The notes under the pieces are model-generated. The model worked only from the letters and a program-made list of their open reading frames with translations, had not been told where the DNA came from and ran no database searches. A DNA stretch of 64,000 nt. Source: Candidatus Levybacteria bacterium RIFCSPHIGHO2_01_FULL_40_16. GTDB lineage: Bacteria > Patescibacteriota > Microgenomatia > Levybacterales > UBA12049. Made by a program: the position numbers and the translations under genes. Each line of letters opens with the position of its first letter. Positions within the stretch are counted from its first letter, which is position 1. The stretch is taken from NCBI GenBank assembly GCA_001783805.1, contig MFNS01000006.1, positions 34,095 through 98,094 on the forward strand, given 5' to 3'. Below, one piece after another: positions 2,400 to 52,034 of the stretch.

Positions 2400-3172
2400 T
2401 TAATTTAAAAACTAAAGAAGAGATTGAAATAATGCGCGCGGGCGGAAAAATCTTGGCGGATGTTTTGTTTGAAGTTCTAAAACATGTAAGAGTTGGCGTT
2501 TCAGAACTAGAGCTTGATCAATTAGCAGAAAAATTGATTTTGAATAAAGGCGGAGAGCCGGGATTTAAAAAAGTAGAGGGATACAAACATACTATTTGTA
2601 TTTCTACGAATGATGTTGTTGTTCACGGAATTCCGACTGAATATAAATTAAAAGAAGGCGATGTAATTGGTATAGATTGCGGGGTGTACTATAAAGGATT
2701 TCATACGGATATGGCGCAAACGCTTCGCGTTTCAACTCAAAACTCAAAGCTCAAAACTCAAAACTACAATAAGATCGATAAATTTTTGCAGGCTGGAGAA
2801 AAAGCGATGTGGAAGGGAATAAAAGCTGCTAAGCCGGGAAATAGGATTGGAGACATCTCCAAAGCAATTCAGGGGGTGGTAGAAGGGCAAGGCTATGCAG
2901 TCGTTAGAAGCCTAATCGGGCATGGGGTTGGAAAAGAGCTTCATGAGGATCCTGAAGTTCCGGGATTTCTGGATGATCCTGCCTTGGAAACTCCTCTTTT
3001 GAAAGAGGGAATGACGATAGCGATTGAGGCAATCTACAATATGGGTAAAAGTGACGTTGTTTATTCAGGAAATGACGGATGGACGATAAAAAGTAAAGAC
3101 GGAAGCCTATCTGGACTTTTTGAACGGACAATTGCCATTACTCGTCAAGAACCAATTATTTTAACGAAATAG
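2396..3172 (+). CDS. map: methionine aminopeptidase type I
   Basis: MetAP motifs (HGIP, GFHTD, metal ligands); ATGA overlap with cmk; carries an in-frame heptamer-repeat insert. Confidence 0.9.
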   Translation: MINLKTKEEIEIMRAGGKILADVLFEVLKHVRVGVSELELDQLAEKLILNKGGEPGFKKVEGYKHTICISTNDVVVHGIPTEYKLKEGDVIGIDCGVYYKGFHTDMAQTLRVSTQNSKLKTQNYNKIDKFLQAGEKAMWKGIKAAKPGNRIGDISKAIQGVVEGQGYAVVRSLIGHGVGKELHEDPEVPGFLDDPALETPLLKEGMTIAIEAIYNMGKSDVVYSGNDGWTIKSKDGSLSGLFERTIAITRQEPIILTK

Positions 3173-3201: not shown

Positions 3202-3210
3202 ATACAGTGT

Positions 3211-3281
3211 TAATTTCTAATTTCTAATTCCTAATTTCTAAAAATATTTAGGTCAATTAGGTCAATTAGTGATTAGGAATT
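3211..3281. repeat. heptamer tandem repeats (TAATTTC x4) plus imperfect inverted repeat in infA leader
   Basis: taatttc taatttc taattcc taatttc; aattcctaat ... attaggaatt inverted arms. Confidence 0.6.
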
Positions 3282-5187: not shown

Positions 5188-6111
5188 ATGGCTAATCCAG
5201 CGTTTAAGGTAAAAGAAGAAAAAATCGCTGAAAATCACAGCGAATTTGCAATAGAGCCTTTGGAGCCGGGATACGGTCATACCTTGGGTAATGCCTTAAG
5301 GAGAACTCTTCTTACTTCTATTCCTGGTGCAGCTGTAACATCAATAAAAATAACTGGTGTAAGGCATAGGTTCTCAACGATTCCGGGAGTTAAAGAAAAT
5401 GTCGTTGATTTCTTGCTTAATATGAAGGGCTTGAACTTTCGTCTTCTTGACGAATCAAGCAAAGGCAAAGCATCATTATCTGTAAAAGGGTCAAAGAAAA
5501 TAACTGGTGCAGATTTTGATCTTCCTGAGAATGTTGAGATTGTTAATAAAGATCACTATGTAGCATCTATTAATGACAAAAAAGCTAAGCTTGAGATGGA
5601 ATTAACAATTGAGCAGGGATTAGGGTATTCATCCGCGGAAGAAAGACGAAGCACAACGTTGGGGCTCATCCCCACAGATGCCGTATTTACCCCTGTTAAG
5701 AGAGTAAGCTATGAAGTTTCCGCTACCCGGGTCGGAAGACAGACAGATTTGGATAAATTGGTATTAAGCGTCTGGACAAATGGAATTGTTAGTCCGAAAG
5801 ATGCGCTCGTTGAGGCATCTAAAATTTTAACCGCATATTTTCTGCAGGTTTATGAGCCAAAATCTGTGATTTCTTCAGAATCAATCAGTGCAAAGCCGTC
5901 AATTGCAGACAACATTTCCAAATTGACTATTGATGAGCTAGATCTGCCAACTAGAATCTACAATAGTCTTAGAAATGGCGGAATTGAAACATTGGGTCAG
6001 CTTTTAGCTACCACAAAGAAGGACCTGATATCAATGCGTAATATGGGAAACAAATCTATAATGGTCGTTGAAGAAAAACTTAAAGAAAAAGGCGTAGCAT
6101 TAACGCAATAA
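5188..6111 (+). CDS. rpoA: DNA-directed RNA polymerase subunit alpha
   Basis: RpoA N-terminal domain (GHTLGNALRRTLL) and C-terminal domain; start taken at internal ATG after rpsD stop. Confidence 0.85.
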   Translation: MANPAFKVKEEKIAENHSEFAIEPLEPGYGHTLGNALRRTLLTSIPGAAVTSIKITGVRHRFSTIPGVKENVVDFLLNMKGLNFRLLDESSKGKASLSVKGSKKITGADFDLPENVEIVNKDHYVASINDKKAKLEMELTIEQGLGYSSAEERRSTTLGLIPTDAVFTPVKRVSYEVSATRVGRQTDLDKLVLSVWTNGIVSPKDALVEASKILTAYFLQVYEPKSVISSESISAKPSIADNISKLTIDELDLPTRIYNSLRNGGIETLGQLLATTKKDLISMRNMGNKSIMVVEEKLKEKGVALTQ

Positions 6112-6121
6112 ATTGCGTTAA
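6100..6121. terminator. perfect 10-bp palindrome spanning rpoA stop codon (TTAACGCAAT-aa-ATTGCGTTAA)
   Basis: Perfect inverted repeat read directly; no downstream T-tract. Confidence 0.35.
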
Positions 6122-6123
6122 AG

Positions 6124-6171
6124 TTCAAATCTTAAAGCTCAAAGCTCAAAGCTACAGCTCAAATCTTAAAA
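6124..6171. repeat. heptamer tandem repeat array (CTCAAAG-like, about 7 units), intergenic rpoA-rplQ
   Basis: ttcaaat cttaaag ctcaaag ctcaaag ctacag ctcaaat cttaaaa. Confidence 0.6.
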
Positions 6172-6259
6172 CTATTCTAAAAGATTTAAAGTTTTTAGAT
6201 TTAGTTTTGACTTTTGACATTTCCCCCTCTGGGGACAGGTGAGTTTTGAGTTTTTTAAT

Positions 6260-6721
6260 ATGAGAAAGAATGTTTTCGGAAGACAATTTAGCAGAGATAC
6301 GAATGAAAGAAAGTCGCTTTTTAAGAGTCTTATCTCTGCTCTAATTCTTCAAGAAAGCATTCAGACAACCTTGGAAAAAGCAAAGGCAATAAAGGGAGAC
6401 GTTGATAAAATCATAAATCAAGCCAAAAGAGGAAATGAAAGGCAAGCGATCCAACTTTTGCAACGCAGTCTTGGAGTAGAGGCACTTAATAAAGTTATAA
6501 AAGATTTGTTGCCTCGATTTAAAGATCGGACCAGCGGATACACAAGAATTATAAAATTAGGCAGGAGATTTTCGGACAATGCCGCGATGGTCGTGATGGA
6601 ATGGGTGGTAAAACCAGAAATTAAAAATGAAAAATTAAAAATGAAAAATGACGTTAAGAAATTATTAGCGGGAAAAATTGAGGAAAAACAAAAAGCAAAA
6701 GGAAAGGTTGCAAAGAAATGA
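6260..6721 (+). CDS. rplQ: 50S ribosomal protein L17
   Basis: L17 core (GYTRIIKLGRRFSDNA); Lys-rich C-terminal tail partly encoded by heptamer repeats. Confidence 0.85.
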   Translation: MRKNVFGRQFSRDTNERKSLFKSLISALILQESIQTTLEKAKAIKGDVDKIINQAKRGNERQAIQLLQRSLGVEALNKVIKDLLPRFKDRTSGYTRIIKLGRRFSDNAAMVVMEWVVKPEIKNEKLKMKNDVKKLLAGKIEEKQKAKGKVAKK

Positions 6722-7143
6722 ATCAACAGATGACAACATCAACAAAATTATCGCAAATAAGCCGCGGATGGCGTCTATTTGATGTCAATGAAAAAACTCT
6801 CGGTAGGGTCGCAAGTGAGATTGCGACAGTATTGATGGGTAAATCAAAACCGTATTTTGTCAGCAATTTGGATTGCGGAGATTTCGTTGTTGTAATTAAT
6901 GCAGAGAAAATAAAGGTGTCGGGAAGAAAAGAGCTGCTTAAGAAATATTTTCGCCATTCAGGTTATCCGGGTGGAGATATTCAAGAGTCTTTGGCGGATT
7001 TACGGAAAAGAAATCCTACAGACATAATTAAATTTGCAATTATGGGAATGTTGCCGCAGAATAAATTACAGGATAAAATGTTAACCAGACTGTTTATCTT
7101 TAAAGGCGCAGAACATCCTTATGCCGATAAGTTTAAAAAATAA
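6718..7143 (+). CDS. rplM: 50S ribosomal protein L13
   Basis: L13 similarity; overlaps rplQ stop. Confidence 0.9.
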   Translation: MNQQMTTSTKLSQISRGWRLFDVNEKTLGRVASEIATVLMGKSKPYFVSNLDCGDFVVVINAEKIKVSGRKELLKKYFRHSGYPGGDIQESLADLRKRNPTDIIKFAIMGMLPQNKLQDKMLTRLFIFKGAEHPYADKFKK

Positions 7144-12081: not shown

Positions 12082-12759
12082 ATGCCAGTAAAGAAAAGTC
12101 AAAGGTCAAAGGTCAAAAATCAAAAGTTATCAGCAGTAATCGCGGTGCCGAAAGCAATTAACACCTCCATTAAAGATAAATTGAAACAACCGAAAAACTT
12201 TATTCCATTAATAATTATTGCGTTAATAATTATTGCATTTTCATTGAAAGGATTATTTGTTGTAGCTTTGGTCAACGGAGAGCCGATTGCAAGAATCGCT
12301 GTTGTCTCCGAATTGGAAAAACAGGGAGGAAAACAAGCTCTTTCATCTTTGGTAAATCAAACTCTTATTTTACAGGAAGCAAGGAAGAAGAATATTCAAG
12401 TTAGCCAAGCGGAAATTGATGCGGCAGCAAAGCAAATCGAAGACAGTCTTAAAAGCCAGGGGCAAAATTTGGATACGGCGTTAGCGATGCAGGGAATGAC
12501 CAGAAAAGATTTATCAACGCAATTAAAATTAAGAAGTCTGGTTGAAAAATTGCTTACAGATAAAGTCAAAGTTACAGACAAAGAAGTTGCGGATTACATT
12601 GAAAAAAACAAAGACACTTTCCCGGCTGAAATGAAGGAAGAAGAAATCAAAAAAAGCGTCACGGAGCAATTAAAACAGCAAAAGTTGGGCAGTGCATCTC
12701 AAGTTTGGCTGGCGGAACTTAACAAAAACGCCAAGATCAACTACTTCGTTAACTACTAG
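12082..12759 (+). CDS. membrane-anchored SurA N-terminal-domain-like chaperone protein
   Basis: N-terminal TM then SurA_N-like helical domain; heptamer repeats encode KSQRSKVKNQK near N-terminus; start uncertain (12034 or 12082). Confidence 0.4.
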   Translation: MPVKKSQRSKVKNQKLSAVIAVPKAINTSIKDKLKQPKNFIPLIIIALIIIAFSLKGLFVVALVNGEPIARIAVVSELEKQGGKQALSSLVNQTLILQEARKKNIQVSQAEIDAAAKQIEDSLKSQGQNLDTALAMQGMTRKDLSTQLKLRSLVEKLLTDKVKVTDKEVADYIEKNKDTFPAEMKEEEIKKSVTEQLKQQKLGSASQVWLAELNKNAKINYFVNY

Positions 12760-15099: not shown

Positions 15100-15588
15100 A
15101 TGGATAATTTTGAAAAATTTTACAATAAGGCACTGGAGTTCTTGTCTTATCGTCCACGGTCGGAGAAAGAAGTGAGAGACCGTTTGAAGCTCAAAACTCA
15201 AAAGTCAAAGCTCAAAAGTTCAACTCAAAACTCAAAATTAATTGATAGTATTGTTGAAAAACTTAAGGAAAAGAAGTTTATTGATGATGAAGGGTTTGCT
15301 AAGGGATGGGTTGAAAGCAGGTTAAGATTTAAGCCGCGAAGTTTACGTTTAATACAATTGGAATTAAAACAGAAAGGCATAGATCAAGAAATAATTAACA
15401 ATTTACAGTTAACAGATGACAGCGATTTGAAATCCGCAAAACAGCTTGTTGGAAAGAGGATTGAGAGACTGAAGGGCTTACCAAGGCAAAAAATCTATGA
15501 AAAATTGGGTAGATATTTGGCTTCAAAAGGATTTAACTGGGATACGATCAAAAAGAGTATTGACGAGATATTGGACAAAGGAGTATAA
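15100..15588 (+). CDS. recX: RecA regulator RecX
   Basis: RecX-like helical repeats, directly after recA; contains in-frame heptamer-repeat insert (LKTQKSKLKSSTQNSKL). Confidence 0.7.
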   Translation: MDNFEKFYNKALEFLSYRPRSEKEVRDRLKLKTQKSKLKSSTQNSKLIDSIVEKLKEKKFIDDEGFAKGWVESRLRFKPRSLRLIQLELKQKGIDQEIINNLQLTDDSDLKSAKQLVGKRIERLKGLPRQKIYEKLGRYLASKGFNWDTIKKSIDEILDKGV

Positions 15589-17448: not shown

Positions 17449-17872
17449 CTCTAGGAAGAAGATCCGTTACCCCCTCTTTCTTAAAGAAAGAGGGGGAGGA
17501 AAGTCCAGACAGGCGTAAGGACGGGGATGGAGCGTAAGCTCCGACGCGAAAGCGCTAGTGTTTATACTCTTTGCCCGCATATAGAGTATAAAACAAGTTT
17601 TGAATTAACAAAACTTGAGAGTAACAGAGACGAGCGGGAGTGAAACGCGACAATCCTACCTGCTGCAACTTTCGAACGACACGTTTGAGCATCTTTACGC
17701 AAGTGTCAAAGAAAGGCATCCCGATCGAATCGGGACGTATGTGACTAATTATCACAAACGAGATAGATTACGGCATTGCCTCGCTGAAGCTTCAGCGAAA
17801 GCGGGGATAAAACTCGCCTTCGTATAACTTCGGCGAAGTGAAACAGAATCTGGCTTACTTTCTTCCTAGAGC
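17449..17872 (+). ncRNA. rnpB: RNase P RNA (bacterial type A-like)
   Basis: P1 pairing CTAGGAAGAA/TTCTTCCTAG; P4 strands AGGAAAGUCCAGAC and ACAGAAUCUGGCUUA; GNRA loops (GCGAAAGC, CUUCGG); 424 nt with no credible ORF. Confidence 0.7.
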
Positions 17873-22026: not shown

Positions 22027-23157
22027 TTAGTCGAAATAGAGCTCTGGGTTAGCAATGATTTTATTCCATGACATTTTTTCCGGGTGGAAGCAAGCATATG
22101 AGCCGATCATCGCGGCATTATCGGTACACAAACTTTTTTCAGGATAAAAAAGTTTAATTTCCAATTTCAAATTTCCAATTTCAAATTTCAAATGATCGCG
22201 GAGCTTTTGATTGCAAGCGACACCGCCGCCCAAAAGAATTGATTTTACCTTGTATTTTTTCGCTGCCCTGATAGTTTTGCGGACGAGAACTTCAATAATT
22301 GATTTTTGGACGCAGGCGCAAATGTCTGCAATGACAGCTTCTTTAAGTTGGGGTCCTGCCGCCAGTTTCCCTCCCGCCAGTGCTCCTTCCAAGCGTTCAG
22401 TCCGCGCTGTCGGGAGCCCTTCCTCTGGCGTCACCCCTCTTTTTAATTTGTTAACTTCGCGCCAGACTGCTGCTTTAAGACCAGAAAAAGAAAAATCAAA
22501 ATCTTTTGAGCCAATCATCGGCCGTGGGAACGTAAAGCGACTAGCAATGCCACGTTCTGAAAGCTTTTCGATTATTGGACCTGCGGGATAAGGTAGATTT
22601 AAAAGCCTGCCGATTTTGTCAAAAGCTTCCCCTGCCGCATCATCTCGGGTTCCGCCCAGCCACTCAAAGTTATTGTAATCTTTCATTAATAACAAATCAG
22701 TGTGTCCTCCCGAAACTAGTAATGTAATTGCCGGAAATTCAATTTTTGATTTTTGATTTTTGATTTTTGATTTTTCGCTAACGAAGTTAGCGAATATGTG
22801 TCCGAGTAAATGATTTACAGGAATTATGGGTTTTTTCCAAAGATAACCTAAAGTTTTTGCAGTTTCAACTCCAATCAGAAGCGATCCAATGAGTCCCGGG
22901 CCTTCGGTTACAGCAATTGCGTCAATGTCTTTAATTTTTAATTTAGAATTATCAATTGCCTTTTCTACTACCGGAATAATGAATTTCAATTGTTCGCGGG
23001 CTGCGATATCGGGAATAATTCCGCCGGTTTTTGCATGGAAAGTTAAGGATGACGCAACAACATTTGCTAAAACTTTAACGTAATTTTCTTTGGGATTTTT
23101 GGAAACGACAGCGGCTGCGGTTTCATCACAACTGGTTTCAATTGCCAAGATTTTCAT
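22027..23157 (-). CDS. tsaD: tRNA N6-adenosine threonylcarbamoyltransferase TsaD
   Basis: MKILAIETSCDETAAAV, HxxGH metal site, Kae1/TsaD fold; two in-frame heptamer-repeat inserts. Confidence 0.9.
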   Translation of the reverse strand: MKILAIETSCDETAAAVVSKNPKENYVKVLANVVASSLTFHAKTGGIIPDIAAREQLKFIIPVVEKAIDNSKLKIKDIDAIAVTEGPGLIGSLLIGVETAKTLGYLWKKPIIPVNHLLGHIFANFVSEKSKIKNQKSKIEFPAITLLVSGGHTDLLLMKDYNNFEWLGGTRDDAAGEAFDKIGRLLNLPYPAGPIIEKLSERGIASRFTFPRPMIGSKDFDFSFSGLKAAVWREVNKLKRGVTPEEGLPTARTERLEGALAGGKLAAGPQLKEAVIADICACVQKSIIEVLVRKTIRAAKKYKVKSILLGGGVACNQKLRDHLKFEIGNLKLEIKLFYPEKSLCTDNAAMIGSYACFHPEKMSWNKIIANPELYFD

Positions 23158-23620: not shown

Positions 23621-24102
23621 TAATTCACATTAATTAATTTCATGTATTTAGTTGTTGAGTGGTTTTGAATTTTTTTGACTGCATAAATAACTTTGCCCTG
23701 AACTAATTTTGCCTGTCTTCTTTTATGTCTCACATATGGGTCGCCTTGGGTAGTCGCAATTATGTCAGGGCGTATTTCGACCATGAGTTTATCATACAGA
23801 TCATTATTTGTCATGTTTTTAAGCATGATTATATAACTAACACTTTCAAGGGAAGATAAGACTTTCGCGCGGTCTTGCTGGGAATTTATTGGCCGGTGTT
23901 TACCTTTTTCTCTTGCGGCTTTACTGTCATCCTCCAGTAATAAGAAGAGATAGTTGGCATATTTTTTTGATTTTTCCAAAAACTTGATGTGGCCTAAATG
24001 CAATATGTCAAAAAATCCGCCAACAACAACAATTGTTTCGTTTAATTTTCTAATTTTTTTTGCGATTTCGATAGCTTCTTTTATATCTAAGATTTTTTTC
24101 AC
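23620..24102 (-). CDS. cytidylyltransferase-like protein (RfaE domain II / heptose-1-P adenylyltransferase-like)
   Basis: GTG start; GGFFDILHLGHIKFL (HxGH) and KGKHRPI blocks. Confidence 0.5.
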   Translation of the reverse strand: MKKILDIKEAIEIAKKIRKLNETIVVVGGFFDILHLGHIKFLEKSKKYANYLFLLLEDDSKAAREKGKHRPINSQQDRAKVLSSLESVSYIIMLKNMTNNDLYDKLMVEIRPDIIATTQGDPYVRHKRRQAKLVQGKVIYAVKKIQNHSTTKYMKLINVN

Positions 24103-24159
24103 AATTTTTAATTTTCAATTTTTAATTTTCATTGAAAATTTTAAATTTCAAATTTCAAA
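24103..24159. repeat. A/T-only heptamer-like repeats with 8-bp palindrome (AATTTTCA-tt-TGAAAATT) between convergent genes
   Basis: aattttc aattttt aattttc attgaaaatt ttaaatttcaaatttcaaa. Confidence 0.5.
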
Positions 24160-25611
24160 TTAGTTTTCCTTTGTACCCCTAAGAAAAATAGATTGCCAGG
24201 GAGCGTAATTTGAAATAAAGGTCTCCGAGATAATTTTTTTACCATTTTTCATTACTTCCCTTGCGAAAGAGGCTCTTGATCCTTCCGCACTGAAATCTAT
24301 TTGTTTTACTGTTCCCTTTGGCAGGGTTGGATCATCTTGGTATAGATCCGGGGGCGGCGGAACTCGGTTGGTAATTACCGGCTGAGTCAGGGTAACTTCT
24401 CTTCCGTCTTTAGTACCATAAAGAAAAACTGAGAGTCTTTGCTCTTCCAGATCGATTTGAGTTTGTACAAGGATGTAGTTACCGGTATCATTTTTGAATT
24501 TTAAGTCGACGCTCGGGACAAAAACAGTAGCATCCAGTCCTGGCAGACTGTCCTGCTCATAATACCCAACCCGATACGCGTGAGCATGCCTCTCCGTAAT
24601 TGGAACCCCCGCATTGAGAATTGCTCTGAAGAAAGTGGTTGATACTTGACAAATACCTCCTCCATCACCAAGCACTGTTTTGCCATTTTGGATAATATAG
24701 GCTTGTTGGTAGCCTGTAAAGGAAGAAACATCGCCCAAGGCTTTGGCAAAAGAAAATTCTTCATTGGGGGCAATTAGAACTCTATTTATTCTGGATGCGG
24801 CCAGGGTAATGTTGAATATTCTCTGAGGTATTGAATGCTGAAAAAGAGAAGTTCCCGTTCCAATCAATTCTTTTATGCCCAAATTGTTTGCTTTATCCGT
24901 AGTTATTTTAGGCGAAAAAGTTTTGATGGTAACCGGAATAACTATTTCTTGAGTTTTTTGTACTAACAATACCTTTTCAAATTGAGCTCTCAAATCTTGC
25001 TTAACTTTCTCCATATCAACCGCTTTGCCTTCTTCAGACGGTTTGAATGCCAGGACTTTTCCGTTTTGAAAAGTGAAAAGCGCATCAACGGGTTCCTTAT
25101 TCACCTTTTCTATAAATGGGGTCAAGGTTTTATTCAGCATGTCTTCGGAATAGCGGTATGCCGGCTGCAAATTTAATCCATTAAAGTATGCCTGAAAAGC
25201 AATGCTAATATTAGAGAGAAATTCATGGGATTTTCCCAAGCCTATTGCCTGCTGAGCAATGAGCTTTTCATCATAGCCAAACTTCAAATCTTTAGCTGAA
25301 ATTGTCGCTATATTCTCCGAAAGTGAAAATGTAAATTGAGTATTTTCAATAGTCTCGTTTCTCTTAGCAAACAATTCCTCGACTTCCTTTTGAGTAGATC
25401 CTCCTACGTAGATGTTATTAAACGTTATTCCCGGATAAACAACGCCGGCGTTCACCTTTTCATAGATAATAAATGTAAAACTTGCAAATAAAAATGCTGC
25501 CAAGACTGCTCCGGTAATAAACCAAAAGCAGGCTTTCATAATGCGTGTAATAATTTTTTTCCGGATTTTTAATTTTTTAGTTTGCTTCATTTGATATACT
25601 ATAGCTGACAT
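24160..25611 (-). CDS. VanW family protein (membrane-anchored)
   Basis: N-terminal TM; VanW core GDGGGICQVSTTFFRAILNAGVPITERHAH. Confidence 0.65.
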   Translation of the reverse strand: MSAIVYQMKQTKKLKIRKKIITRIMKACFWFITGAVLAAFLFASFTFIIYEKVNAGVVYPGITFNNIYVGGSTQKEVEELFAKRNETIENTQFTFSLSENIATISAKDLKFGYDEKLIAQQAIGLGKSHEFLSNISIAFQAYFNGLNLQPAYRYSEDMLNKTLTPFIEKVNKEPVDALFTFQNGKVLAFKPSEEGKAVDMEKVKQDLRAQFEKVLLVQKTQEIVIPVTIKTFSPKITTDKANNLGIKELIGTGTSLFQHSIPQRIFNITLAASRINRVLIAPNEEFSFAKALGDVSSFTGYQQAYIIQNGKTVLGDGGGICQVSTTFFRAILNAGVPITERHAHAYRVGYYEQDSLPGLDATVFVPSVDLKFKNDTGNYILVQTQIDLEEQRLSVFLYGTKDGREVTLTQPVITNRVPPPPDLYQDDPTLPKGTVKQIDFSAEGSRASFAREVMKNGKKIISETFISNYAPWQSIFLRGTKEN

Positions 25612-25631: not shown

Positions 25632-27089
25632 ATGGATGAAAATATGATCTTCAAGCCCATTAATACTGTCCCTCAAGAGGCGGACATTCAGCCTGCCCGC
25701 CAGAGCCTTGCTCAGGCAAGTGCAGGCGGGCCTGAGATTCCGCCAAATAATCCAGTTATTGCACCAGTTCCATCTGAATTACAAAGTAGTCCTCCTCCGT
25801 CAATACTATTTAGGATTTTGAAAATTTTATTGGGAATAGCGATTGTTCTTGGCATTATTTTCTTCGTCTACAATATAATTTTGCCTAAGTTTTTTCCTTC
25901 CAAAATCAATCAGGCAACATTGACATATTGGGGATTGTTCGAAGATGCTTCAGTAATCGCTCCGATTATTGTAGATTTTGAAAAGGAACATCCGAATATT
26001 AAAATAGAGTATACCAAGCAAGACCTGGATCAATATAGGGATAAATTGGTAACCCGTTCTAATAATGGTAATGGTCCGGATATCTTTAGGTTCCACAATA
26101 CTTGGGTTCCTCAGCTTTCAGAGCTACTTTTGCCTCTTCCTCAGAGCGTTATCTCAAAAGAAGATTTTTCTAAAAATTATTATCCGGTCGTTAAGACAGA
26201 TCTCATAAAAAATGGGGCTATTTACGGTGTGCCTTTGCAAATAGACACCCTGAACCTTTTTATAAATAGAGATCTTTTTCAAGCAGCCGGTCTCAAGCCG
26301 CCTGGCACCTGGATAGAATTCGTAAAATACGCGAGACAACTGACTGTCAAGGATGGAAATAACAATATAAAAACAGCCGGAGCCGCAATGGGAACATTCA
26401 GCAATATAACTCATGCTCCCAATATAATCTCAATGCTTTTTGTCCAGAATGGCGTGAATCTCAATGATATATCCTCCAATCTTCCGGCTGCAGCTGAGGC
26501 CTTAAATTTTTACTCCTCCTTTGCCTTGCCCGCAGAGAACGTCTGGGATGATACCCTAGATGAATCAATTAAACTCTTTGCTTCGGGCTCCCTAGCCATG
26601 TATTTTGGTTATTCGGGAGATTTTTTTACAATAAAATCCATGAATCCAAACCTTTCATTTGACATTTATTCGGTACCGAGTTTGCCGGGGCAAAATGCAA
26701 CGATTGCCAGTTACTGGGCTGAGGGAGCATCTGTCAAAAGTAAACATCAAAAGGAAGCACTTCTTTTCCTGCAATATCTTACCCGAAAAGAAACAGCGCA
26801 AAAATTATTCACAGAAGAGTCAAAAACGAGAAATTTCGGTGAGCCATATGCCAGAGTTGATTTAGCAGATAGCTTGAAGGATTCCATTGCTTATCCTTTT
26901 GTCGGAGCAGCGCCCTCTGCGGTTTCTTCTTTCTTTGTTGACGGGACGTTTGACAACGGATTAAATTCCCAGATGAATAACAATTTAAGCAGTGCGGTAG
27001 ATTCTATGCTGAAAGGAACATCCCCGCAAACAGCTGCCGAAACTCTTTCTGCGGGAGTTTCGACAGTCCTAAAGCAATATGCCCAATAA
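25632..27089 (+). CDS. extracellular solute-binding protein (ABC transporter SBP family 1-like), membrane-anchored
   Basis: Pro-rich N-terminus, TM, SBP_bac_1-like fold; no adjacent permease or ATPase. Confidence 0.55.
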   Translation: MDENMIFKPINTVPQEADIQPARQSLAQASAGGPEIPPNNPVIAPVPSELQSSPPPSILFRILKILLGIAIVLGIIFFVYNIILPKFFPSKINQATLTYWGLFEDASVIAPIIVDFEKEHPNIKIEYTKQDLDQYRDKLVTRSNNGNGPDIFRFHNTWVPQLSELLLPLPQSVISKEDFSKNYYPVVKTDLIKNGAIYGVPLQIDTLNLFINRDLFQAAGLKPPGTWIEFVKYARQLTVKDGNNNIKTAGAAMGTFSNITHAPNIISMLFVQNGVNLNDISSNLPAAAEALNFYSSFALPAENVWDDTLDESIKLFASGSLAMYFGYSGDFFTIKSMNPNLSFDIYSVPSLPGQNATIASYWAEGASVKSKHQKEALLFLQYLTRKETAQKLFTEESKTRNFGEPYARVDLADSLKDSIAYPFVGAAPSAVSSFFVDGTFDNGLNSQMNNNLSSAVDSMLKGTSPQTAAETLSAGVSTVLKQYAQ

Positions 27090-28113
27090 CCTAATTGTCT
27101 GTGGAGGAACATTTGACCATTTTCACAAGGGACACGAAGCATTTTTGAATTATGTTTTTTCTGTTGGCAAAAAATATCTTGTTGGAATAACCAGCGATAA
27201 CTACGTAAAAAATTCAAAATTTAGAATTCAGAATCCAGAATTTATTGAACCTTTTGAAAAAAGAAAAGAATCAGTTTTGGAGTTTGTAAAAAAAGAAAAA
27301 GCTTTAAATAAAGTTGAGATCATTAAAATAGAGGATTTGTTTGGGCCCACTCTTTCTAAAGATCTAGTGATTGATGCAATTGTTGTGTCACAGGATTCAA
27401 AAGATGGAGCAGACATCATTAATCAAAAAAGAAAAGAGCTCAAGTTGGCTGCGCTTAAGGTCTTTGTTGTTCCTCCTGTTAATTCTGAGGACGGAAAGCT
27501 TATTTCGTCCGCGAGAATTAGGAACGGCGAAATAAATAGAGCAGGCAGACTCTATGTAAAACCGGTATGGCTTCAAAAAGATTTAATTCTCCCAAAAGAT
27601 TTAAGAGAAGAGTTTCATAAACCGTTTGGTGGATTATTTAAAGCTATTACAGATTCGAATATTCTCAAAAAGTCTTTGATAATTGCAGTCGGTGACGAAA
27701 CATCCAGAAATCTTAATAAGTTAGCTGTCAATCAAAGGCTCTCTGTGGTAGATTTTAAGGTTGCGCGAAAGAAAAAATTTTCCTCATTCCTAGATCTTGG
27801 TTTCTCAGGAAATGAGAAAGTTGTATTTGCAAATAATCCTGCAGGCCACATGACGCATGATCTTTTCTCAAAAATCTTAGATATTTTTAAATTCAGTTTT
27901 AGCAAGAGGATAATCTTAAAAATAGCAGGAGAAGAAGACCTTGCGGTTTTACCCTTAATCTTGGCAGCGCCTCTGGACACTGTCATTTATTATGGTCAGC
28001 CCCCACTTCGCTCTGCGAGCTACGCGGGGCAGGCAGGCATTATAAAAGTGGTAGTTACAGAACAAAGTAAAGAGCGCGCTTATGATCTAGCCTCAAGACT
28101 AAAGCCTATATAA
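27079..28113 (+). CDS. archaeal-type phosphopantetheine adenylyltransferase fused to DUF359-like (GTP-dependent dephospho-CoA kinase-like) domain
   Basis: N-terminus CGGTFDHFHKGH (cytidylyltransferase HxGH); C-terminal half resembles DUF359 (IAVGDETSRNL...VVDFK). Confidence 0.45.
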   Translation: MPNNLIVCGGTFDHFHKGHEAFLNYVFSVGKKYLVGITSDNYVKNSKFRIQNPEFIEPFEKRKESVLEFVKKEKALNKVEIIKIEDLFGPTLSKDLVIDAIVVSQDSKDGADIINQKRKELKLAALKVFVVPPVNSEDGKLISSARIRNGEINRAGRLYVKPVWLQKDLILPKDLREEFHKPFGGLFKAITDSNILKKSLIIAVGDETSRNLNKLAVNQRLSVVDFKVARKKKFSSFLDLGFSGNEKVVFANNPAGHMTHDLFSKILDIFKFSFSKRIILKIAGEEDLAVLPLILAAPLDTVIYYGQPPLRSASYAGQAGIIKVVVTEQSKERAYDLASRLKPI

Positions 28114-34112: not shown

Positions 34113-34150
34113 TCCCCTCTTTCTTAAAGAAAGAGGGGATTTTCTTTTTG
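34113..34150 (+). terminator. intrinsic-terminator-like hairpin (CCCCTCTTTC-ttaaa-GAAAGAGGGG + T-rich) 19 nt before secA ATG
   Basis: 10-bp perfect stem plus ATTTTCTTTTTG; 25-nt core identical to rnpB P3 hairpin (17471-17495). Confidence 0.55.
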
Positions 34151-37257: not shown

Positions 37258-37323
37258 TAAGCGGGCAGGCCCGCCTGCCATCGCTACCAGCCCGGACTAG
37301 CCCAGGCATGGCAAGGCAGACGC
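37258..37323 (-). other. GC-rich structured island (about 66 nt) between histidine kinase stop and response-regulator start
   Basis: gcgggcaggcccgcctgcc... with alternative overlapping stems; about 65-70% GC in a roughly 35% GC genome. Confidence 0.4.
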
Positions 37324-42082: not shown

Positions 42083-42853
42083 ATGATACAACTAAGCAAA
42101 GTTTCAAAACAATTTCGTACTGGAGTTTTTGCACTTTCCGATATTAGTTTTGAAGTGGAAAAAGGGGAATTCGTTTTTTTGGTAGGCCCAACTGGAAGCG
42201 GAAAAACCACAATTTTTAGACTGCTTACCCGCGAAGCGCTTCCCACAACAGGTGAAGTAATTGTAGATAATTGGGATGTTGTAAAACTGCCAAACAATAA
42301 AATATCTCATCTTCGGAAAAAGATAGGTGTGGTATTCCAGGATTTGAAACTTTTAATGGACAGGACAATTTTTGAAAATATTATTCTGCCTCTTGAGGTT
42401 TCCGGGATAGATACTTTGCCCGCTGCTAAGATTGTCGAGGACGTCATGGGAAAGGTTGGAATTTTGAGTCATCGGGATAAATTTCCGATCCAGCTTTCCG
42501 GAGGAGAATTGCAAAGAGCGGCAATTGCCAGAGCGCTTATCCTTGAGCCGGATATCTTATTGGCAGATGAGCCAACAGGCAATTTGGACTCTCAAACAGC
42601 GATGGAGATTGTCAGGCTATTGGAGAATATTAATAAAAAAGGTACAACTGTAATTATGGCAACCCACAACGAAGATGCTATAAAAACGCTTTCGAAAAGA
42701 ATTATTGCTTTGGATAAAGGACAGCTGGCGGGAGAAAGCGGCAAGAAATCAAAAACGCACACAGAGCATTCTGAGAAAAAATCAGCTATTATAAAGAAGG
42801 AGGAGAATCCTTCGACGAGCTCAGGATTAAGAAAAGAAGATGAAGAATTTTAA
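42083..42853 (+). CDS. ftsE: cell division ATP-binding protein FtsE
   Basis: Walker A GPTGSGKTT, signature LSGGELQR, Walker B; followed by ftsX. Confidence 0.8.
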   Translation: MIQLSKVSKQFRTGVFALSDISFEVEKGEFVFLVGPTGSGKTTIFRLLTREALPTTGEVIVDNWDVVKLPNNKISHLRKKIGVVFQDLKLLMDRTIFENIILPLEVSGIDTLPAAKIVEDVMGKVGILSHRDKFPIQLSGGELQRAAIARALILEPDILLADEPTGNLDSQTAMEIVRLLENINKKGTTVIMATHNEDAIKTLSKRIIALDKGQLAGESGKKSKTHTEHSEKKSAIIKKEENPSTSSGLRKEDEEF

Positions 42854-44974: not shown

Positions 44975-45847
44975 ATGAGAGCAATAATTGTCCTTATTGC
45001 GGTTTTATTTCTTCTGCATTTTGCGAATCCTGTTTCTGCAGCAACTTTTACCTTCGAAGGATCTCTGGCAGAGATCCATGATGATGAATCTTTTACTATC
45101 AATGTTTTACTTTCTATAGCCAGTTCGAAGGGAAAAAGCTATTACATTCGACCTGGATTCTTCCAGCCAGAAAAAACTCCACGTTCTTATTTCGGCTATA
45201 TCAAAGATAATGCAGGTGATTGGGCTAACGGGGGATCACCGATAGATAAAACACAGTTTTATAAAATTACTATGAATGACAATAACGAATGGGTAGGCAG
45301 CCTTATTATAAAGGCTGATCTAGAGGCTTCCGGATTCAATGGATCGGGAAATTACAATTTTATAATTGGTAGGTATACAGAATCCGGGAGCACAGTAAAT
45401 TGGTGCGATGGCGATTCCACTCCATGTTCCACTTCCATTATTACAATTAATCAAGCACCAACGCCTACGTCTACCCCGACGCCTGTTCCAATAAATATTC
45501 CTACTTCAACGCCAACCCCTACGCCAACTCCAACATCTTTGCCGGCGCCGACGAAAACGCCAACGCCTACTCCAAGCCGTACACCTACGCCTATTTTAAG
45601 ATCCTCGTTATCGCCTGCGCCAGAAGAAGTTTTGGGAGAAAGTACGGAAACTGGGGAAATTGTTTCCGCTACTGACACAGAATCTTCTAATGAAGACGCA
45701 CTGGCTTCAAATAAATCCAAAAGCACAAATAACAATTGGTTTCAAAAATTTTTCATTTGGATTGGCGGAATTCTTTTAATTGCTTGTGCTATACTATCTT
45801 TTCGAGTTTATATTAAAAATAAAAAACCGGATTCCGAAACAATATGA
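44975..45847 (+). CDS. secreted protein with Pro/Thr-rich linker and C-terminal TM anchor
   Basis: Signal peptide; APTPTSTPTPVP...TPTPTPS low-complexity linker; C-terminal hydrophobic anchor. Confidence 0.45.
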   Translation: MRAIIVLIAVLFLLHFANPVSAATFTFEGSLAEIHDDESFTINVLLSIASSKGKSYYIRPGFFQPEKTPRSYFGYIKDNAGDWANGGSPIDKTQFYKITMNDNNEWVGSLIIKADLEASGFNGSGNYNFIIGRYTESGSTVNWCDGDSTPCSTSIITINQAPTPTSTPTPVPINIPTSTPTPTPTPTSLPAPTKTPTPTPSRTPTPILRSSLSPAPEEVLGESTETGEIVSATDTESSNEDALASNKSKSTNNNWFQKFFIWIGGILLIACAILSFRVYIKNKKPDSETI

Positions 45848-46323
45848 AAATTAAAGAAAAAGTTTTTGTTACAAATAATTTCGAAGAGACACAAAAACTA
45901 GGAGAGAATTTTGCAAGGTCTCTCCTTGCAAGTCCGCAAGGAGAGACCTCAAATGTGATTACTCTCTATGGGGAGTTGGGAAGCGGCAAAACAACTTTTG
46001 TTCAGGGGTTAGCGGCTGGCCTTGGAATTAAGAACAGAATTATTTCCCCTACATTCATAATAGTCAGAAGCTATAAATTAAGGATTAAGGATAAAGGATT
46101 AATGATAAATGACTTTTATCATATAGATTTGTATAGGGTGGAGAGCGAGAGGGATCTTGAGGGTTTAGGGATTGAAGAAATTGTAAATAATAAAAATAAT
46201 ATTGTGGTAATTGAGTGGGCGGAAAAATTAAAAAAATACTTGCCTCAAAAAAGAATAGACATAAAATTTTCATATGAAAAAGACAACATAAGAAAAATTA
46301 TGTTTGGATCTTCAAATCAATAA
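45844..46323 (+). CDS. tsaE: tRNA threonylcarbamoyladenosine biosynthesis protein TsaE
   Basis: LYGELGSGKTTFVQG P-loop, SPTFII, HIDLYR; contains heptamer-encoded insert KLRIKDKGLM. Confidence 0.75.
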   Translation: MKIKEKVFVTNNFEETQKLGENFARSLLASPQGETSNVITLYGELGSGKTTFVQGLAAGLGIKNRIISPTFIIVRSYKLRIKDKGLMINDFYHIDLYRVESERDLEGLGIEEIVNNKNNIVVIEWAEKLKKYLPQKRIDIKFSYEKDNIRKIMFGSSNQ

Positions 46324-46627: not shown

Positions 46628-47206
46628 ATGGATAAGGTTAAAAAAGCAATTGAAGTTTTAAGGCAGGGCGGAATAGTTATTTTTCCAACAGATACGGCTA
46701 TCGGCATTGGCTGCAGAGTAGATGATAAAAAAGCAGTAGAAAGATTATTTAAAATCCGCAAAAGACCTGAAAATAAACCAATGTTAATATTGGTTAATTC
46801 GATTGAGATGGCTCAAGATTATTTATTACCAATTTCTCAAGAAATTAAGAATAAGCTGATTAAACGCTATTGGCCGGGAAAGCTTACAATTATTCTGCAA
46901 AGCAAAATTGATAAGGTGCCAAATTTGGTAAGAGGCGGAACAAATACTCTTGGCGTTAGATTTCCCGATAGTAAAAATTTGTTAAAATTAATTAGCGGAG
47001 TGGGCGTACCAGTTGTTGCGCCATCTGCAAATTTTGCAGGCGAGAAAACACCGTTTAGATTTGAAGATCTAAATCCAAAACTTATAAAACAAGCGGATTA
47101 TGTTTTAAATGAAGAAATAAGTTTGGAAAAAAATGTTTCAACTATAATTGATTGTACGGTTACGCCCTGGAAGGTTATCAGAGAAGGAGCGGTAAAGATA
47201 AATTAA
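46628..47206 (+). CDS. tsaC: L-threonylcarbamoyladenylate synthase (YrdC/Sua5 domain)
   Basis: YrdC motifs (FPTDTAIGIG, VRGGTNTLGVRFP, PSANFAG). Confidence 0.8.
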   Translation: MDKVKKAIEVLRQGGIVIFPTDTAIGIGCRVDDKKAVERLFKIRKRPENKPMLILVNSIEMAQDYLLPISQEIKNKLIKRYWPGKLTIILQSKIDKVPNLVRGGTNTLGVRFPDSKNLLKLISGVGVPVVAPSANFAGEKTPFRFEDLNPKLIKQADYVLNEEISLEKNVSTIIDCTVTPWKVIREGAVKIN

Positions 47207-47208
47207 AA

Positions 47209-47565
47209 ATGAAAAATGAAAAATTAAAAATTATTTTGGTACTAGATACTGCAGATAGTCAAGAAATTACAGTAGGTTTGATTATTGATGGCCGGAAAGA
47301 CATTCAAACCAAAAAGGTTATTTTCAATAAGACACAAATTATCCTGCCAATGGTTGATAAGATTCTAAAAAAACATTTATTAGCGCCAAAAGATTTATCG
47401 GAAATTCAAATTAACCTCGGGCCGGGATCATTCACAGGCTTACGGATTGGTCTTGCCATTGCCAATGCTTTGTCTTTTGTTCTCAAAGTTCCGGTTAATG
47501 GAAAAAAAGCCGGAGAAATAATTTTGCCAATATATTCCTCCTCCGCGAAAAGCAAACAGCATTAG
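47209..47565 (+). CDS. tsaB: TsaB (YeaZ)-like protein, N-terminal domain only (short form)
   Basis: ILVLDTA ... GPGSFTGLRIGLAIANAL; only about 119 aa from ATG at 47209. Confidence 0.55.
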   Translation: MKNEKLKIILVLDTADSQEITVGLIIDGRKDIQTKKVIFNKTQIILPMVDKILKKHLLAPKDLSEIQINLGPGSFTGLRIGLAIANALSFVLKVPVNGKKAGEIILPIYSSSAKSKQH

Positions 47566-51075: not shown

Positions 51076-51938
51076 AAATTTTGGGAACGGGACTAGATGG
51101 GCTTGTTGGGTCAAGAATAATTGAGCTTTTAAGCGGTAAGCATGAGTTTGAGAATCTCAGCCTCAGTACGGGAGCGGACATTACGGATAGGAATGCAATT
51201 CTCCAAAAAATCAAAAACTCGGATGCTCAAATCATGCTTCACTTAGCCGCGAAAACCGATGTTGATGGATGCGAATTGGATAAGCCATTAGGAGAAAAAG
51301 GAGATGCTTGGAAAATTAATGTGTTTGGAACACAAAACGTAGTTGACGGATGTTCGGAGAGTAATAAAAAAATAATTTATATTTCTACGGATTTTGTTTT
51401 TGATGGAACAAAAGAAGCTTATTCGGAAGAAGATGCTCCAAATCCGCTCAGCTGGTACGCCAAAACAAAATATGAGGGAGAAAAAATCGTCCAAACTTCA
51501 AAAATTCCCTGGATCATTGTCCGTATTGCCTCTCCCTATAGGGCAGTATTCAAAAAATTAGATTTTACTCGCGCGATTCTTAAGCGTTTACAAGAAGGAC
51601 TTTCTGTAGTAGCGGTTAAGGATCATATTTTTACTCCGACATTTATTGACGATATTGCCTTGGCAATCGACGTTCTGATTGCAGATAATTTACAGGGCAT
51701 ATTCCATGCCGTTGGGAGTCAGAGCTTAACACCTTTTGCTGCCTCTATTCTGATAGCAAAAGAATTTAGTTTGGATTCATCTAAAATCACTGAAACTAGA
51801 AGAGCTGAGTTTTTTAATAATCGAGCGCCCAGGTCTTTCCAACTGGCGCTGAAAAATGATAAAATACAAAGATTAGGAGTAAAAATGAAGACGTTTGAAG
51901 AAGGACTGAGAGAGATAAAAAAACAAGGGATAATTTGA
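51072..51938 (+). CDS. rmlD: dTDP-4-dehydrorhamnose reductase-like (RmlD family)
   Basis: ATGA overlap with rmlB; LGTGLDGLVGSRI Rossmann motif, YAKTKYEGE (YxxxK). Confidence 0.7.
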   Translation: MKILGTGLDGLVGSRIIELLSGKHEFENLSLSTGADITDRNAILQKIKNSDAQIMLHLAAKTDVDGCELDKPLGEKGDAWKINVFGTQNVVDGCSESNKKIIYISTDFVFDGTKEAYSEEDAPNPLSWYAKTKYEGEKIVQTSKIPWIIVRIASPYRAVFKKLDFTRAILKRLQEGLSVVAVKDHIFTPTFIDDIALAIDVLIADNLQGIFHAVGSQSLTPFAASILIAKEFSLDSSKITETRRAEFFNNRAPRSFQLALKNDKIQRLGVKMKTFEEGLREIKKQGII

Positions 51939-52034
51939 AATTTTAAATTTGCAATTTTCAATCAAATCTAAATTTTAAAATTAAAACATTAAAAATTCAT
52001 TAAAAATTAAAAATTTTAAATTGAAAATTAAGTT
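51939..52034. repeat. 96-nt A/T-only low-complexity heptamer-like repeat tract (AAATTTT/AAAATTA units) filling rmlD-ugd intergenic
   Basis: Essentially G/C-free; periodic aaatttt, aaaatta, aaaattc units. Confidence 0.5.

Follow-up and report, generated by a model that had tools for sequence, protein, structure and literature searches.

Two tandem blocks of the heptamer AAAAATK (K being G or T) were identified in a stretch of 64,000 nucleotides (contig MFNS01000006.1, positions 34,095 to 98,094; hereafter the window) from Candidatus Levybacteria bacterium RIFCSPHIGHO2_01_FULL_40_16. One block lies within rplQ, which encodes ribosomal protein L17, and the other at the junction of tsaC and tsaB, two genes of N6-threonylcarbamoyladenosine (t6A) synthesis. 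Both blocks are probably heptanucleotide microsatellites that are driven by slippage, belong to a class spread over the genome and the lineage of the Levybacteria, and are filtered by the reading frame. The evidence consists of the 7-nt periodicity, the distribution of the arrays, the logic of the frame, and differences that are found among relatives and, in whole units, between strains. Slippage is the likely generator of the arrays, and the encoded peptide appears to have no selected function.

The two AAAAATK blocks and the reading frame

The gene rplQ (6260-6721, plus strand) encodes an L17 protein of 153 aa. The Pfam family Ribosomal_L17 (PF01196) spans aa 20-116, corresponding to nt 6317-6607 (E 1.7e-25, profile positions 1-97 of 97), and is followed by a lineage-specific Lys-rich tail of 37 residues (aa 117-153). 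The block at 6623-6650 begins 3-4 codons past the end of the domain, within this tail. It reads AAAAATG AAAAATT AAAAATG AAAAATG and is translated in L17 as ...VVKPEIKNEKLKMKNDVKK.... The block is contained in an array on the plus strand at 6618-6651, composed of AAATTAA and AAATGAA units (about 4.9 units, with a perfect 14-nt period repeated 2.3 times) and detected by Tandem Repeats Finder (TRF) and by a period scan. The whole array is translated as EIKNEKLKMKND.

The second block (47205-47232) reads AAAAATG AAAAATG AAAAATT AAAAATT and is contained in an array on the plus strand at 47200-47233 (AAATTAA AAATGAA AAATGAA AAATTAA AAATTAT, likewise 4.9 units). This array is itself the junction between tsaC and tsaB. 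The upstream gene, tsaC (46628-47206, plus strand, 192 aa; PF01300, Sua5/YciO/YrdC, E 4.6e-51), has its last codons and its stop inside the array. An AAAAATT unit supplies the stop codon TAA (47204-47206) and an AAAAATG unit supplies an ATG 2 nt later. The open reading frame (ORF) from this ATG (47209-47565, plus strand, 118 aa) translates as MKNEKLKIILVLDT and matches PF00814, a model named TsaD that also covers TsaB (E 2.4e-13); its homologues are annotated as TsaB. TsaB proteins of this lineage have about 104-118 aa and correspond roughly to the N-terminal half of the canonical TsaB of about 230 aa, so that the gene is of half size.

The ATG at 47209-47211 is the only one available to tsaB and is most likely its start codon. 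Other possible starts are ATT at 47230 or 47233 and TTG at 47236, and gene callers also use a TTG at 47152. In the window, AAA occupies the canonical Met position of tsaB. The motif GGAG is located within the 3' end of tsaC, 19 nt upstream of the ATG, and initiation of tsaB therefore probably relies on termination-reinitiation. Translation of the tsaB block is probable, not certain, and less certain than a previous sequence-only reading of the window had assumed, because both units with an ATG are missing from a strain that shows 0 mismatches over 5.5 kb.

The sequences and coordinates of the blocks, together with their translations and gene identities as given in that reading, were confirmed by direct reading, by ORF reading and by Pfam. 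It had also described the blocks as the same four units in a different order, which is incorrect: the rplQ block contains three G-units and one T-unit, whereas the tsaB block contains two of each. The longest exact string common to both is 20 nt, AAAAATGAAAAATTAAAAAT, at 6623 and 47212. The peptide of both blocks is KNEKLK(M/I), read in L17 and from the tsaB ATG, and two unrelated proteins do have a common repeat-encoded peptide, as had been proposed. With at most 1 mismatch, (AAAAATK)3 gives 7 overlapping matches in the window, against 0.02 expected from dinucleotide-preserving shuffles, and the rplQ and tsaB blocks are the only arrays of at least three such units in the window.

The common peptide follows from the reading frame. 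As 7 is coprime with 3, successive units of an array inside an ORF are read in different codon phases, and the cycle of three phases closes after 21 nt. TGA occurs in pure (AAAAATG)n and TAA in pure (AAAAATT)n, so each is closed in one phase. Enumeration of the G/T patterns of (AAAAATK)4 gave 2 of 16 stop-free patterns in frame 0 and 4 of 16 in frame 1. The junction AAT-xAA must be G (GAA, not TAA) and the junction AAA-TxA must be T (TTA, not TGA), while the junction ATx is free and can be ATG or ATT, giving M or I. The observed patterns GTGG (rplQ) and GGTT (tsaB) are both open, and all open patterns translate into K-N-E-K-L-K-(M/I), in one cyclic order or another. The 20 identical nucleotides span a complete cycle of the frame in the sole open solution, with M/I as the one position left free. 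The peptide is shared because any AAAAATK array inside an ORF must read in this way, and no copying between loci is therefore needed to explain it. On the A-rich strand, the units AAAACTC, AAAAATC, AAAATTC and AAATTTC are free of stops whatever the phase, and on the other strand they contain TGA. Because of this stop-codon content, the A-rich strand is the sense strand in 40 of the 42 arrays found inside ORFs in the window and related loci. The frame is kept only by length changes of three units (21 nt).

A synthetic (KNEKLKM/I)n query against 5.8 billion proteins yielded 3070 candidates that share words with it but no informative match; one hit, to an unannotated protein of 50 aa, was weak (E 7.6e-4), and the other 11 hits had E values of at least 0.6. 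A gathering-threshold scan of the whole window with Rfam found one tRNA only and no RNA family overlapping the blocks. Programmed -1 frameshifting and transcriptional slippage were considered and rejected: the blocks have five consecutive A only, no X XXY YYZ motif and no Rfam frameshift element.

Heptamer arrays in the window, in relatives and between strains

The host belongs to the Candidatus Levybacteria (Microgenomates, Candidate Phyla Radiation, CPR) of aquifer-type metagenomes and has a G+C content of 37%. In the window, TRF returned about 22 rows of period 7, compared with 3-7 for each neighbouring period. With a strict self-match scan, eight period-7 and four period-14 arrays were obtained, and 0-1 for each further period between 4 and 21; under this criterion, order-3 Markov shuffles of the window yielded no tandem array of any period. 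A looser scan raised the number for period 7 to 16, with 0-1 at other periods. The excess extends to relatives: in 80 rplQ loci of different Levybacteria species (1.26 Mb), period 7 accounts for 103 arrays and no period other than a multiple of 7 for more than 6, and in 80 tsaB loci from metagenomes the corresponding numbers are 19 and at most 3. These 122 further arrays are patchily distributed over the 160 related loci, with densities from 0 to 9 per 10 kb. Identical arrays were found in independent ENA, JGI, Logan and NCBI assemblies, and an assembly artefact was rejected as their origin.

Including the window, 134 arrays were collected from 1.85 Mb. Their median length is about five units, and they comprise 57 distinct canonical units, which are A-rich on one strand (A 54%) and mostly of the form AAA(A)NNN. 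Only 31% of the arrays lie inside long ORFs, compared with 83% of random windows, and 69% lie outside them, compared with 17%. The arrays are depleted in coding sequence yet far from excluded from it, and a share of 31% in ORFs is unusually high. In the window, 8 of the 16 arrays are inside ORFs with solid Pfam identities, namely those of methionine aminopeptidase (MetAP), L17, RecX, TsaD (twice), a cytidylyltransferase-like protein, TsaE and a UDP-glucuronate-decarboxylase-like (UXS-like) protein. Compared with solved structures, the array segments are insertions or replaced loops (+9 aa and +2 aa in TsaD, +6 aa in the UXS-like protein). At least three tandem units, a dispersed excess of period 7, variation in whole units and enrichment in non-coding DNA were all found, as is typical of heptanucleotide long simple sequence repeats (LSSRs). 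Two arrays of one locus have an identical canonical unit four times as often as two arrays of different loci (8.3% vs 2.1%, permutation p<0.0005).

The sites of the two blocks were compared in relatives. The L17 linker, from ...MEWV to VKELPAGK...KRKVAKK, is hypervariable among 120 homologues, with lengths of 5 aa (8 homologues), 9 aa (8), 11 aa (5), 15-16 aa (72) and 21-28 aa (16). The 16-aa class exceeds the 9-aa class by exactly 7 aa, or three units, and the copy number ranges from 0 to about 5. The linker peptide tracks the heptamer unit and follows no protein motif; examples are KNEKLKMKND, QNSKLKVQND, SQKSNLKSQNL, IKDQKSNIKN and INDKGLMIKDK, the last of which represents the unit type present in tsaE of the window. 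At the DNA level, L013 has the unexpanded sequence gaaATTAAAAATGAAattaag, L014 has AAAGATC/AAAAATC units, L021 (55% L17 identity) has AAAAATTAAAAATGAAAAATG, and L030 has ATCAAAT/ATCAAAA units with the ORF stopping within the array. In L011, L015 and L021, GC-rich palindromes of 14-36 nt are nested in the rplQ-tail array and encode the peptides LPARNASQRNAGG, NPSASSGE and PPSGG. The tail motif VKELPAGK...KRKVAKK on the 3' side of the array is kept in frame in relatives with quite different arrays, and translation therefore reads through the rplQ array.

The N-terminus of TsaB is less often derived from an array. Among 120 homologues, 82 have 104 aa, nearly all with Met and two residues (e.g., MNT) before LILDT and thus unextended. 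Array-derived N-termini occur in only 9 of the 120: MKNEKLKI[T/I/Y] in six, and MKDEKLKIT, MIKDKLKII and MNPSTSSGEKLKIT, the last of which contains the same nested element as some L17 tails. The tsaC-tsaB junctions of relatives consist of ATTTCTA x 4, AGATTAA x 9 or CATTAGT-type arrays adjoining the ATG, or of no array. In P0134 the two genes are fused via a stop-free AAAAATC-type array, and in L091 they form one ORF that reads WKIIRQGAIRMQNVILLIDT without a stop.

A third site, a loop of MetAP (gene map), carries AAAACTC, AAAATTC, AAGGATT/AAGGATA, AAAAATK or palindrome-nested arrays in relatives and nothing in more distant species. L016 has the same map array as the window, shortened by exactly 21 nt, and in L041 the MetAP loop carries ATTAAAAATGAAAAATTAAAAATGAAAAATGAC, a string of 33 nt identical to one in the rplQ of the window. 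Copies of the AAAAATK array beyond the window were sought in 1.79 Mb of relatives' loci, where five perfect arrays of at least three units were found; three of them are in ORFs and all three read KNEKLKMKN. Relatives thus have AAAAATK arrays as well, both in the L17 tail and in a MetAP loop. The sequence-only reading had held that convergent low complexity would be indicated by a lack of further copies combined with tails conserved in all relatives; instead, further copies are present in the relatives' loci, and the tails vary.

Length changes between near-identical strains were found at three of the about 16 arrays of the window. L171 (99.07% identical over 5.9 kb) has a single indel, a 14-nt deletion at 6618 that equals two units or one 14-nt super-period; its L17 ends with KPEIKNEK* at 132 aa and has lost the tail. 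L174 (0 mismatches in 5.5 kb) differs only by a 21-nt deletion of three units at 47200, which takes both ATG-bearing units and leaves ...GATAAATTAAAAATTATTTTGGTA..., so that tsaB is without the ATG. In L177 (a 526-kb contig of the same species, 0 mismatches in 5.5 kb), the only indel is a 14-nt deletion in a tsaD array at 22169; its TsaD (L177:2964-3953) is truncated at 329 of 376 aa and lacks the conserved CTDNAAMIG segment. No length variation was seen in L001-L010 at the arrays 2732, 3206, 6124, 12090 and 15187, or in the returned contigs at the arrays near 24101, 27209, 51932 and 55526. Collapse artefacts are unlikely at arrays of 35-45 nt, which are far shorter than the assembler k-mers (contig names carry k141).

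Two other differences between assemblies are located away from the heptamer arrays. In L007 (a JGI contig of the same species; L007:2111-2112), about 60 nt of rplM are missing (window 7015-7072), which shortens L13 from 141 to 121 aa; ACAG microhomology flanks the deletion. The start of rplM overlaps the stop of rplQ in ATGA at 6718-6721 (plus strand). At 27436-27485, two independent assemblies break: L182 is an inverted chimera at 27436, and L183 (NCBI) has 22 nt replacing 44. No explanatory repeat was evident in the sequence at 27436-27485.

Origin of the arrays

According to the slippage explanation, a typical array would consist of about five units of an A-rich 7-mer (AAAANNN), born and resized in whole units by slipped-strand mispairing, and repeated contraction and expansion would homogenise mutations across the units. 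Arrays would build up where they are harmless, as in intergenic spacers, gene junctions, protein tails and surface loops, and selection would retain open, in-frame states (multiples of 21 nt) where extra residues are tolerated. The rplQ array, inserted in the linker between the L17 domain and the Lys-rich tail, would be neutral or nearly so, and its out-of-frame variants would delete the tail. At the second block, the TAA of an AAAAATT unit would end tsaC and the ATG of the next AAAAATG unit would start tsaB; in the strain without this ATG, ATT or TTG could, or would have to, replace it.

The sequence-only reading proposed that the repeat spreads at the DNA level and is then read through by translation. 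The second half of this proposal agrees with the data, the peptide being a by-product of a DNA-level repeat that is read through. Spread from block to block is without support: the G/T order, the 20-nt identity and the peptide are forced by the frame, at least 57 unit types occur, and the length changes are local and in whole units. In its copy-and-paste form, the proposal is that an AAAAATK cassette (about 33 nt, IKNEKLKMKND) was moved or converted between loci and that the rplQ and tsaB blocks are mutual copies. The fourfold excess of identical units within loci, the occurrence of exact ATTAAAAATGAAAAATTAAAAATGAAAAATGAC in both the window rplQ and the L041 MetAP gene, the nested element (peptide NPSTSSGEKL) found in L17 tails and in a TsaB N-terminus of other species, and the small, mobile-looking GC-rich palindromes nested in arrays would all suit such copying. 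It is nevertheless improbable, as the frame alone accounts for the 20-nt identity, the blocks differ in composition and have no common flanks, and terminal repeats and target duplications are absent. The variety of units, the contracted or proto-arrays of 1.5-2 units at the same sites in relatives, and strain differences that are whole-unit indels inside arrays also argue against a cassette, and adjoining or inverted array pairs account for part of the within-locus sharing. The blocks lack the common flanks and inverted termini of miniature mobile elements (of the type of miniature inverted-repeat transposable elements, repetitive extragenic palindromes, Rickettsia palindromic elements (RPE) or small dispersed repeats (SDR)), a comparison that does not cover the nested palindromes.

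The arrays could also be selected devices, acting as phase-variable switches, as leader landing sites for heptamer-binding OB-fold proteins (e.g., cold-shock proteins (CSPs), S1) or as hairpin structures. Intragenic simple sequence repeats (SSRs) that switch a product by unit number are seen in the L17, TsaD and tsaB-ATG alleles, in which 14-nt frame-shifting deletions of rplQ and tsaD and the start-removing deletion of tsaB occur in otherwise identical strains. Many intergenic arrays adjoin start codons, the rpoA-rplQ spacer folds well (z = -4.4), and for TAACTGA repeats translational regulation has been proposed, with CspB binding one heptamer per protein (PMC4679880). Against this, unit sequence, copy number and even presence are unconserved at orthologous sites, the genes hit are housekeeping genes, unlike the surface and host-interaction genes of contingency loci, truncation of TsaD is probably deleterious rather than adaptive, and only a minority of the window arrays was seen to vary. 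A selected function is possible for some arrays; as a general explanation it is contradicted by the missing conservation and is held to be quite unlikely. Protein-level convergence or chance, in which AT-rich codons and selection for Lys/Glu/Asn-rich disordered segments would produce the blocks with no DNA repeat process, is effectively refuted. The low G+C content and the Lys-rich tails fit it, but the period is 7 nt and not 3, most of the 134 arrays are outside long ORFs, shuffles yield none, the peptides at one site switch between unrelated sequences with the unit type, and indels come in 7-nt units.

Several points weigh against the preferred explanation, slippage filtered by the reading frame. 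Slippage is deduced from its footprints and not from direct observation, and the strain alleles come from consensus metagenome assemblies. Stepwise birth by 7 nt is awkward in an essential ORF, where single-unit steps shift the frame; births therefore need 21-nt events, compensated steps or other input. The within-locus excess of identical units would also be compatible with copying or gene conversion, as would the 33-nt string common to the window rplQ and a MetAP gene of another species. The explanation gives no reason for a unit size of 7 nt. In addition, the natural strain without the tsaB ATG raises the possibility that the array precedes the real start (ATT or TTG) and is untranslated.

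Other elements of the window and comparison with known systems

The remaining arrays of the window are distributed over genes and spacers. In map, an AAAACTC/AAAGCTC array in the MetAP loop (2732-2770, plus strand) is translated as STQNSKLKTQNYN, and the map-infA intergenic region contains TAATTTC x 4.4 (3206-3243, plus strand; TRF and period scans). An AAAGGTC/AAAAGTC array (plus-strand reading) is located at 12090-12129 on the minus strand upstream of uppS (TRF and period scans). The recX array (15187-15217, plus strand; AAAACTC/AAAAGTC/AAAGCTC) is translated as LKLKTQKSKLKS and is an insertion relative to most orthologues. Two arrays are present in tsaD on the minus strand: GAAATTT/GGAAATT (sense strand) at 22153-22195, translated as DHLKFEIGNLKLEIK and polymorphic, and a perfect CAAAAAT x 5 (sense strand) at 22735-22780, translated as SEKSKIKNQKSKIE, which is a 9-aa insertion relative to the best solved homologue. 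Two adjoining, partly inverted intergenic arrays, AATTTTT/AATTTTC followed by AAATTTC (24101-24164, no strand assigned; TRF), are positioned between two minus-strand genes. The array in the cytidylyltransferase-like/DUF359 gene (27209-27241, plus strand) is translated as KNSKFRIQNPEF. The tsaE array (46072-46112, plus strand; ATTAAGG/ATAAAGG/ATTAATG) is translated as YKLRIKDKGLMIND, a type of peptide that other species have in the L17 tail and in the MetAP loop. A long degenerate intergenic heptamer tract (51932-52029, no strand assigned; TRF) is located upstream of the UDP-glucose dehydrogenase gene (start 52035), and a perfect CAAATTT x 5 array in the UDP-glucuronate-decarboxylase-like gene (55526-55571, plus strand) is translated as TDQISNFKFQISNLDY, with 6 aa more than human UXS1.

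All four t6A genes of the window (tsaD at 22027-23157, tsaE at 45844-46323, tsaC and tsaB) carry or adjoin arrays, and tsaD carries two. This clustering may be a coincidence, given about 16 arrays among about 77 genes.

The rpoA-rplQ spacer contains AAAGCTC-type units at 6124-6174 facing inverted GAGTTTT/GACTTTT units at 6200-6254 (array 6124-6254, plus strand; TRF), with the GC palindrome TCCCCCTCTGGGGA at 6222-6235 between the inverted units. The RNA of this region (6112-6262) is predicted to fold into a long hairpin (-41.8 kcal/mol, z = -4.4 vs shuffles), with 8 nt between its end and the rplQ ATG. Another hairpin, AACGCAAT-AA-ATTGCGTT (6102-6119), overlaps the stop codon of rpoA. A perfect hairpin, CCCCCTCTTTCTTAAAGAAAGAGGGGG, with a stem of 6-7 bp, occurs twice in the window (17470-17496 and 34114-34138) and resembles either a terminator common to both sites or a dispersed small palindrome.

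GC-rich palindromic mini-elements of 14-40 nt (e.g., CCTGCCCGC...GCAGGCGGG, AATCCTTCGACGAGCTCAGGATT) were observed inside ORFs, where they are translated in frame. They are located at 25693-25729, 27999-28030, 37264-37279 and 42807-42829 in the window and at L011:10380-10413, L162:1865-1898 and L083:15071-15110 in relatives. Their translated peptides include ARQSLAQASAGG and NPSTSSG in the ftsE tail. Relatives have palindromes of the same types within their heptamer arrays, at the sites of the L17 tail, the TsaB N-terminus and the MetAP loop. These elements appear to represent a second, possibly mobile class of repeats.

Small elements nested in heptamers are also known from cyanobacteria: the short tandemly repeated repetitive (STRR) heptamers of heterocystous species were reportedly described by Mazel et al. 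in 1990, and SDR nested in STRR heptamers in Nostoc by Elhai et al. in 2008. As in the Levybacteria, dispersed tandem heptamers with small hairpin-forming elements nested inside characterize this system; in the present data, GC-rich palindromes are nested in arrays of L011, L012, L013, L015, L021 and L162. In contrast, the STRR units CCCCAGT, TTGGTCA and CAACAGT do not occur in tandem in the window, and the phylum is different. The nested palindromes of the Levybacteria have 14-40 nt and belong to several sequence types. RPE, reportedly described by Ogata et al. (2000), are selfish repeats inserted in frame inside protein-coding genes of Rickettsia. In both cases, non-protein repetitive DNA is translated in loops or tails of conserved, often essential proteins. 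However, RPE are dispersed palindromes of 100-150 bp with families, whereas the blocks described here are tandem microsatellites of 28-45 nt; only the nested palindromes resemble RPE, in miniature.

Heptanucleotide LSSRs are over-represented in prokaryotes, and polymerase slippage has been proposed for them, according to Mrazek, Guo & Shah (2007) as cited in PMC4679880 and PMC4692102. A polymerase-footprint idea has been offered for period 7 (Mrazek 2007, as cited in PMC4679880). Like these repeats, the arrays of the Levybacteria are tandem 7-nt units in few to tens of copies, are dispersed and mostly intergenic, and favour period 7. They differ in that they occur in a CPR lineage with a small genome, consist of many A-rich units instead of one dominant unit and lie in about a third of cases in housekeeping ORFs, where they are apparently translated. 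No report of such arrays for CPR bacteria was found in the literature searched.

Known heptamers include the cyanobacterial STRR, GGGNATC of Xanthomonas and Nostoc, and TAACTGA of Beggiatoaceae (PMC4679880, PMC4692102). Neither TAACTGA nor the STRR units, GGGAATC or GGGGAYT have tandem copies in the window. TAACTGA direct repeats are found in marine Beggiatoaceae, cyanobacteria and some Bacteroidetes (MacGregor 2015, PMC4679880). They have 2-6 or more copies, are typically located just upstream of start codons, including those of ribosomal protein genes, and occasionally occur in ORFs in a stop-free orientation. In the window, TAACTGA has three single occurrences and no tandem ones. Unlike this single-unit system, the arrays of the Levybacteria comprise many units, are frequent in ORFs and supply stop and start codons.

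Phase-variable contingency loci contain SSRs in ORFs or promoters of Haemophilus, Neisseria and other bacteria (PMC2651432, PMC8262952). In these loci, as here, whole-unit slippage shifts the frame, and truncated and full-length alleles coexist in near-clonal populations. Contingency loci, however, mostly have units of 1-5 nt, switch adaptively and reversibly, and affect surface or host genes, whereas the alleles described here were read from assembled consensus contigs and affect rplQ, tsaD and tsaB. The breadth of A-rich units, the share of housekeeping ORFs, the arrays that supply stops and starts or fuse genes, and the alleles that truncate L17 and TsaD are unusual in comparison with the known systems.

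A rather unlikely, although more far-reaching, interpretation is that the arrays render the core housekeeping genes of an ultra-small CPR bacterium hypermutable and are possibly seeded or moved with the nested palindromes, as a counterpart of STRR/SDR. If so, populations that are otherwise clonal would switch, by whole-unit slippage, between states with and without the Lys-rich L17 tail, an intact TsaD and the tsaB start codon.

For microsatellites inside genes, the arrays provide a simple rule: a 7-nt repeat is read in all three phases, and the stop filter determines the unit variants as well as the peptide. Heptamer microsatellites abound in Levybacteria genomes, extend into ribosomal, t6A, RecX and MetAP genes and differ in length between otherwise identical strains, and some of their alleles truncate the protein. 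The annotation of start codons, of gene fusions such as tsaC-tsaB and of "insertions" in CPR proteins is affected, and the arrays bear on the strain-level population genetics of uncultured bacteria. They also bear on the question of why prokaryotes favour heptanucleotide repeats, since the DNA process and the protein filter are separable at dozens of orthologous sites.

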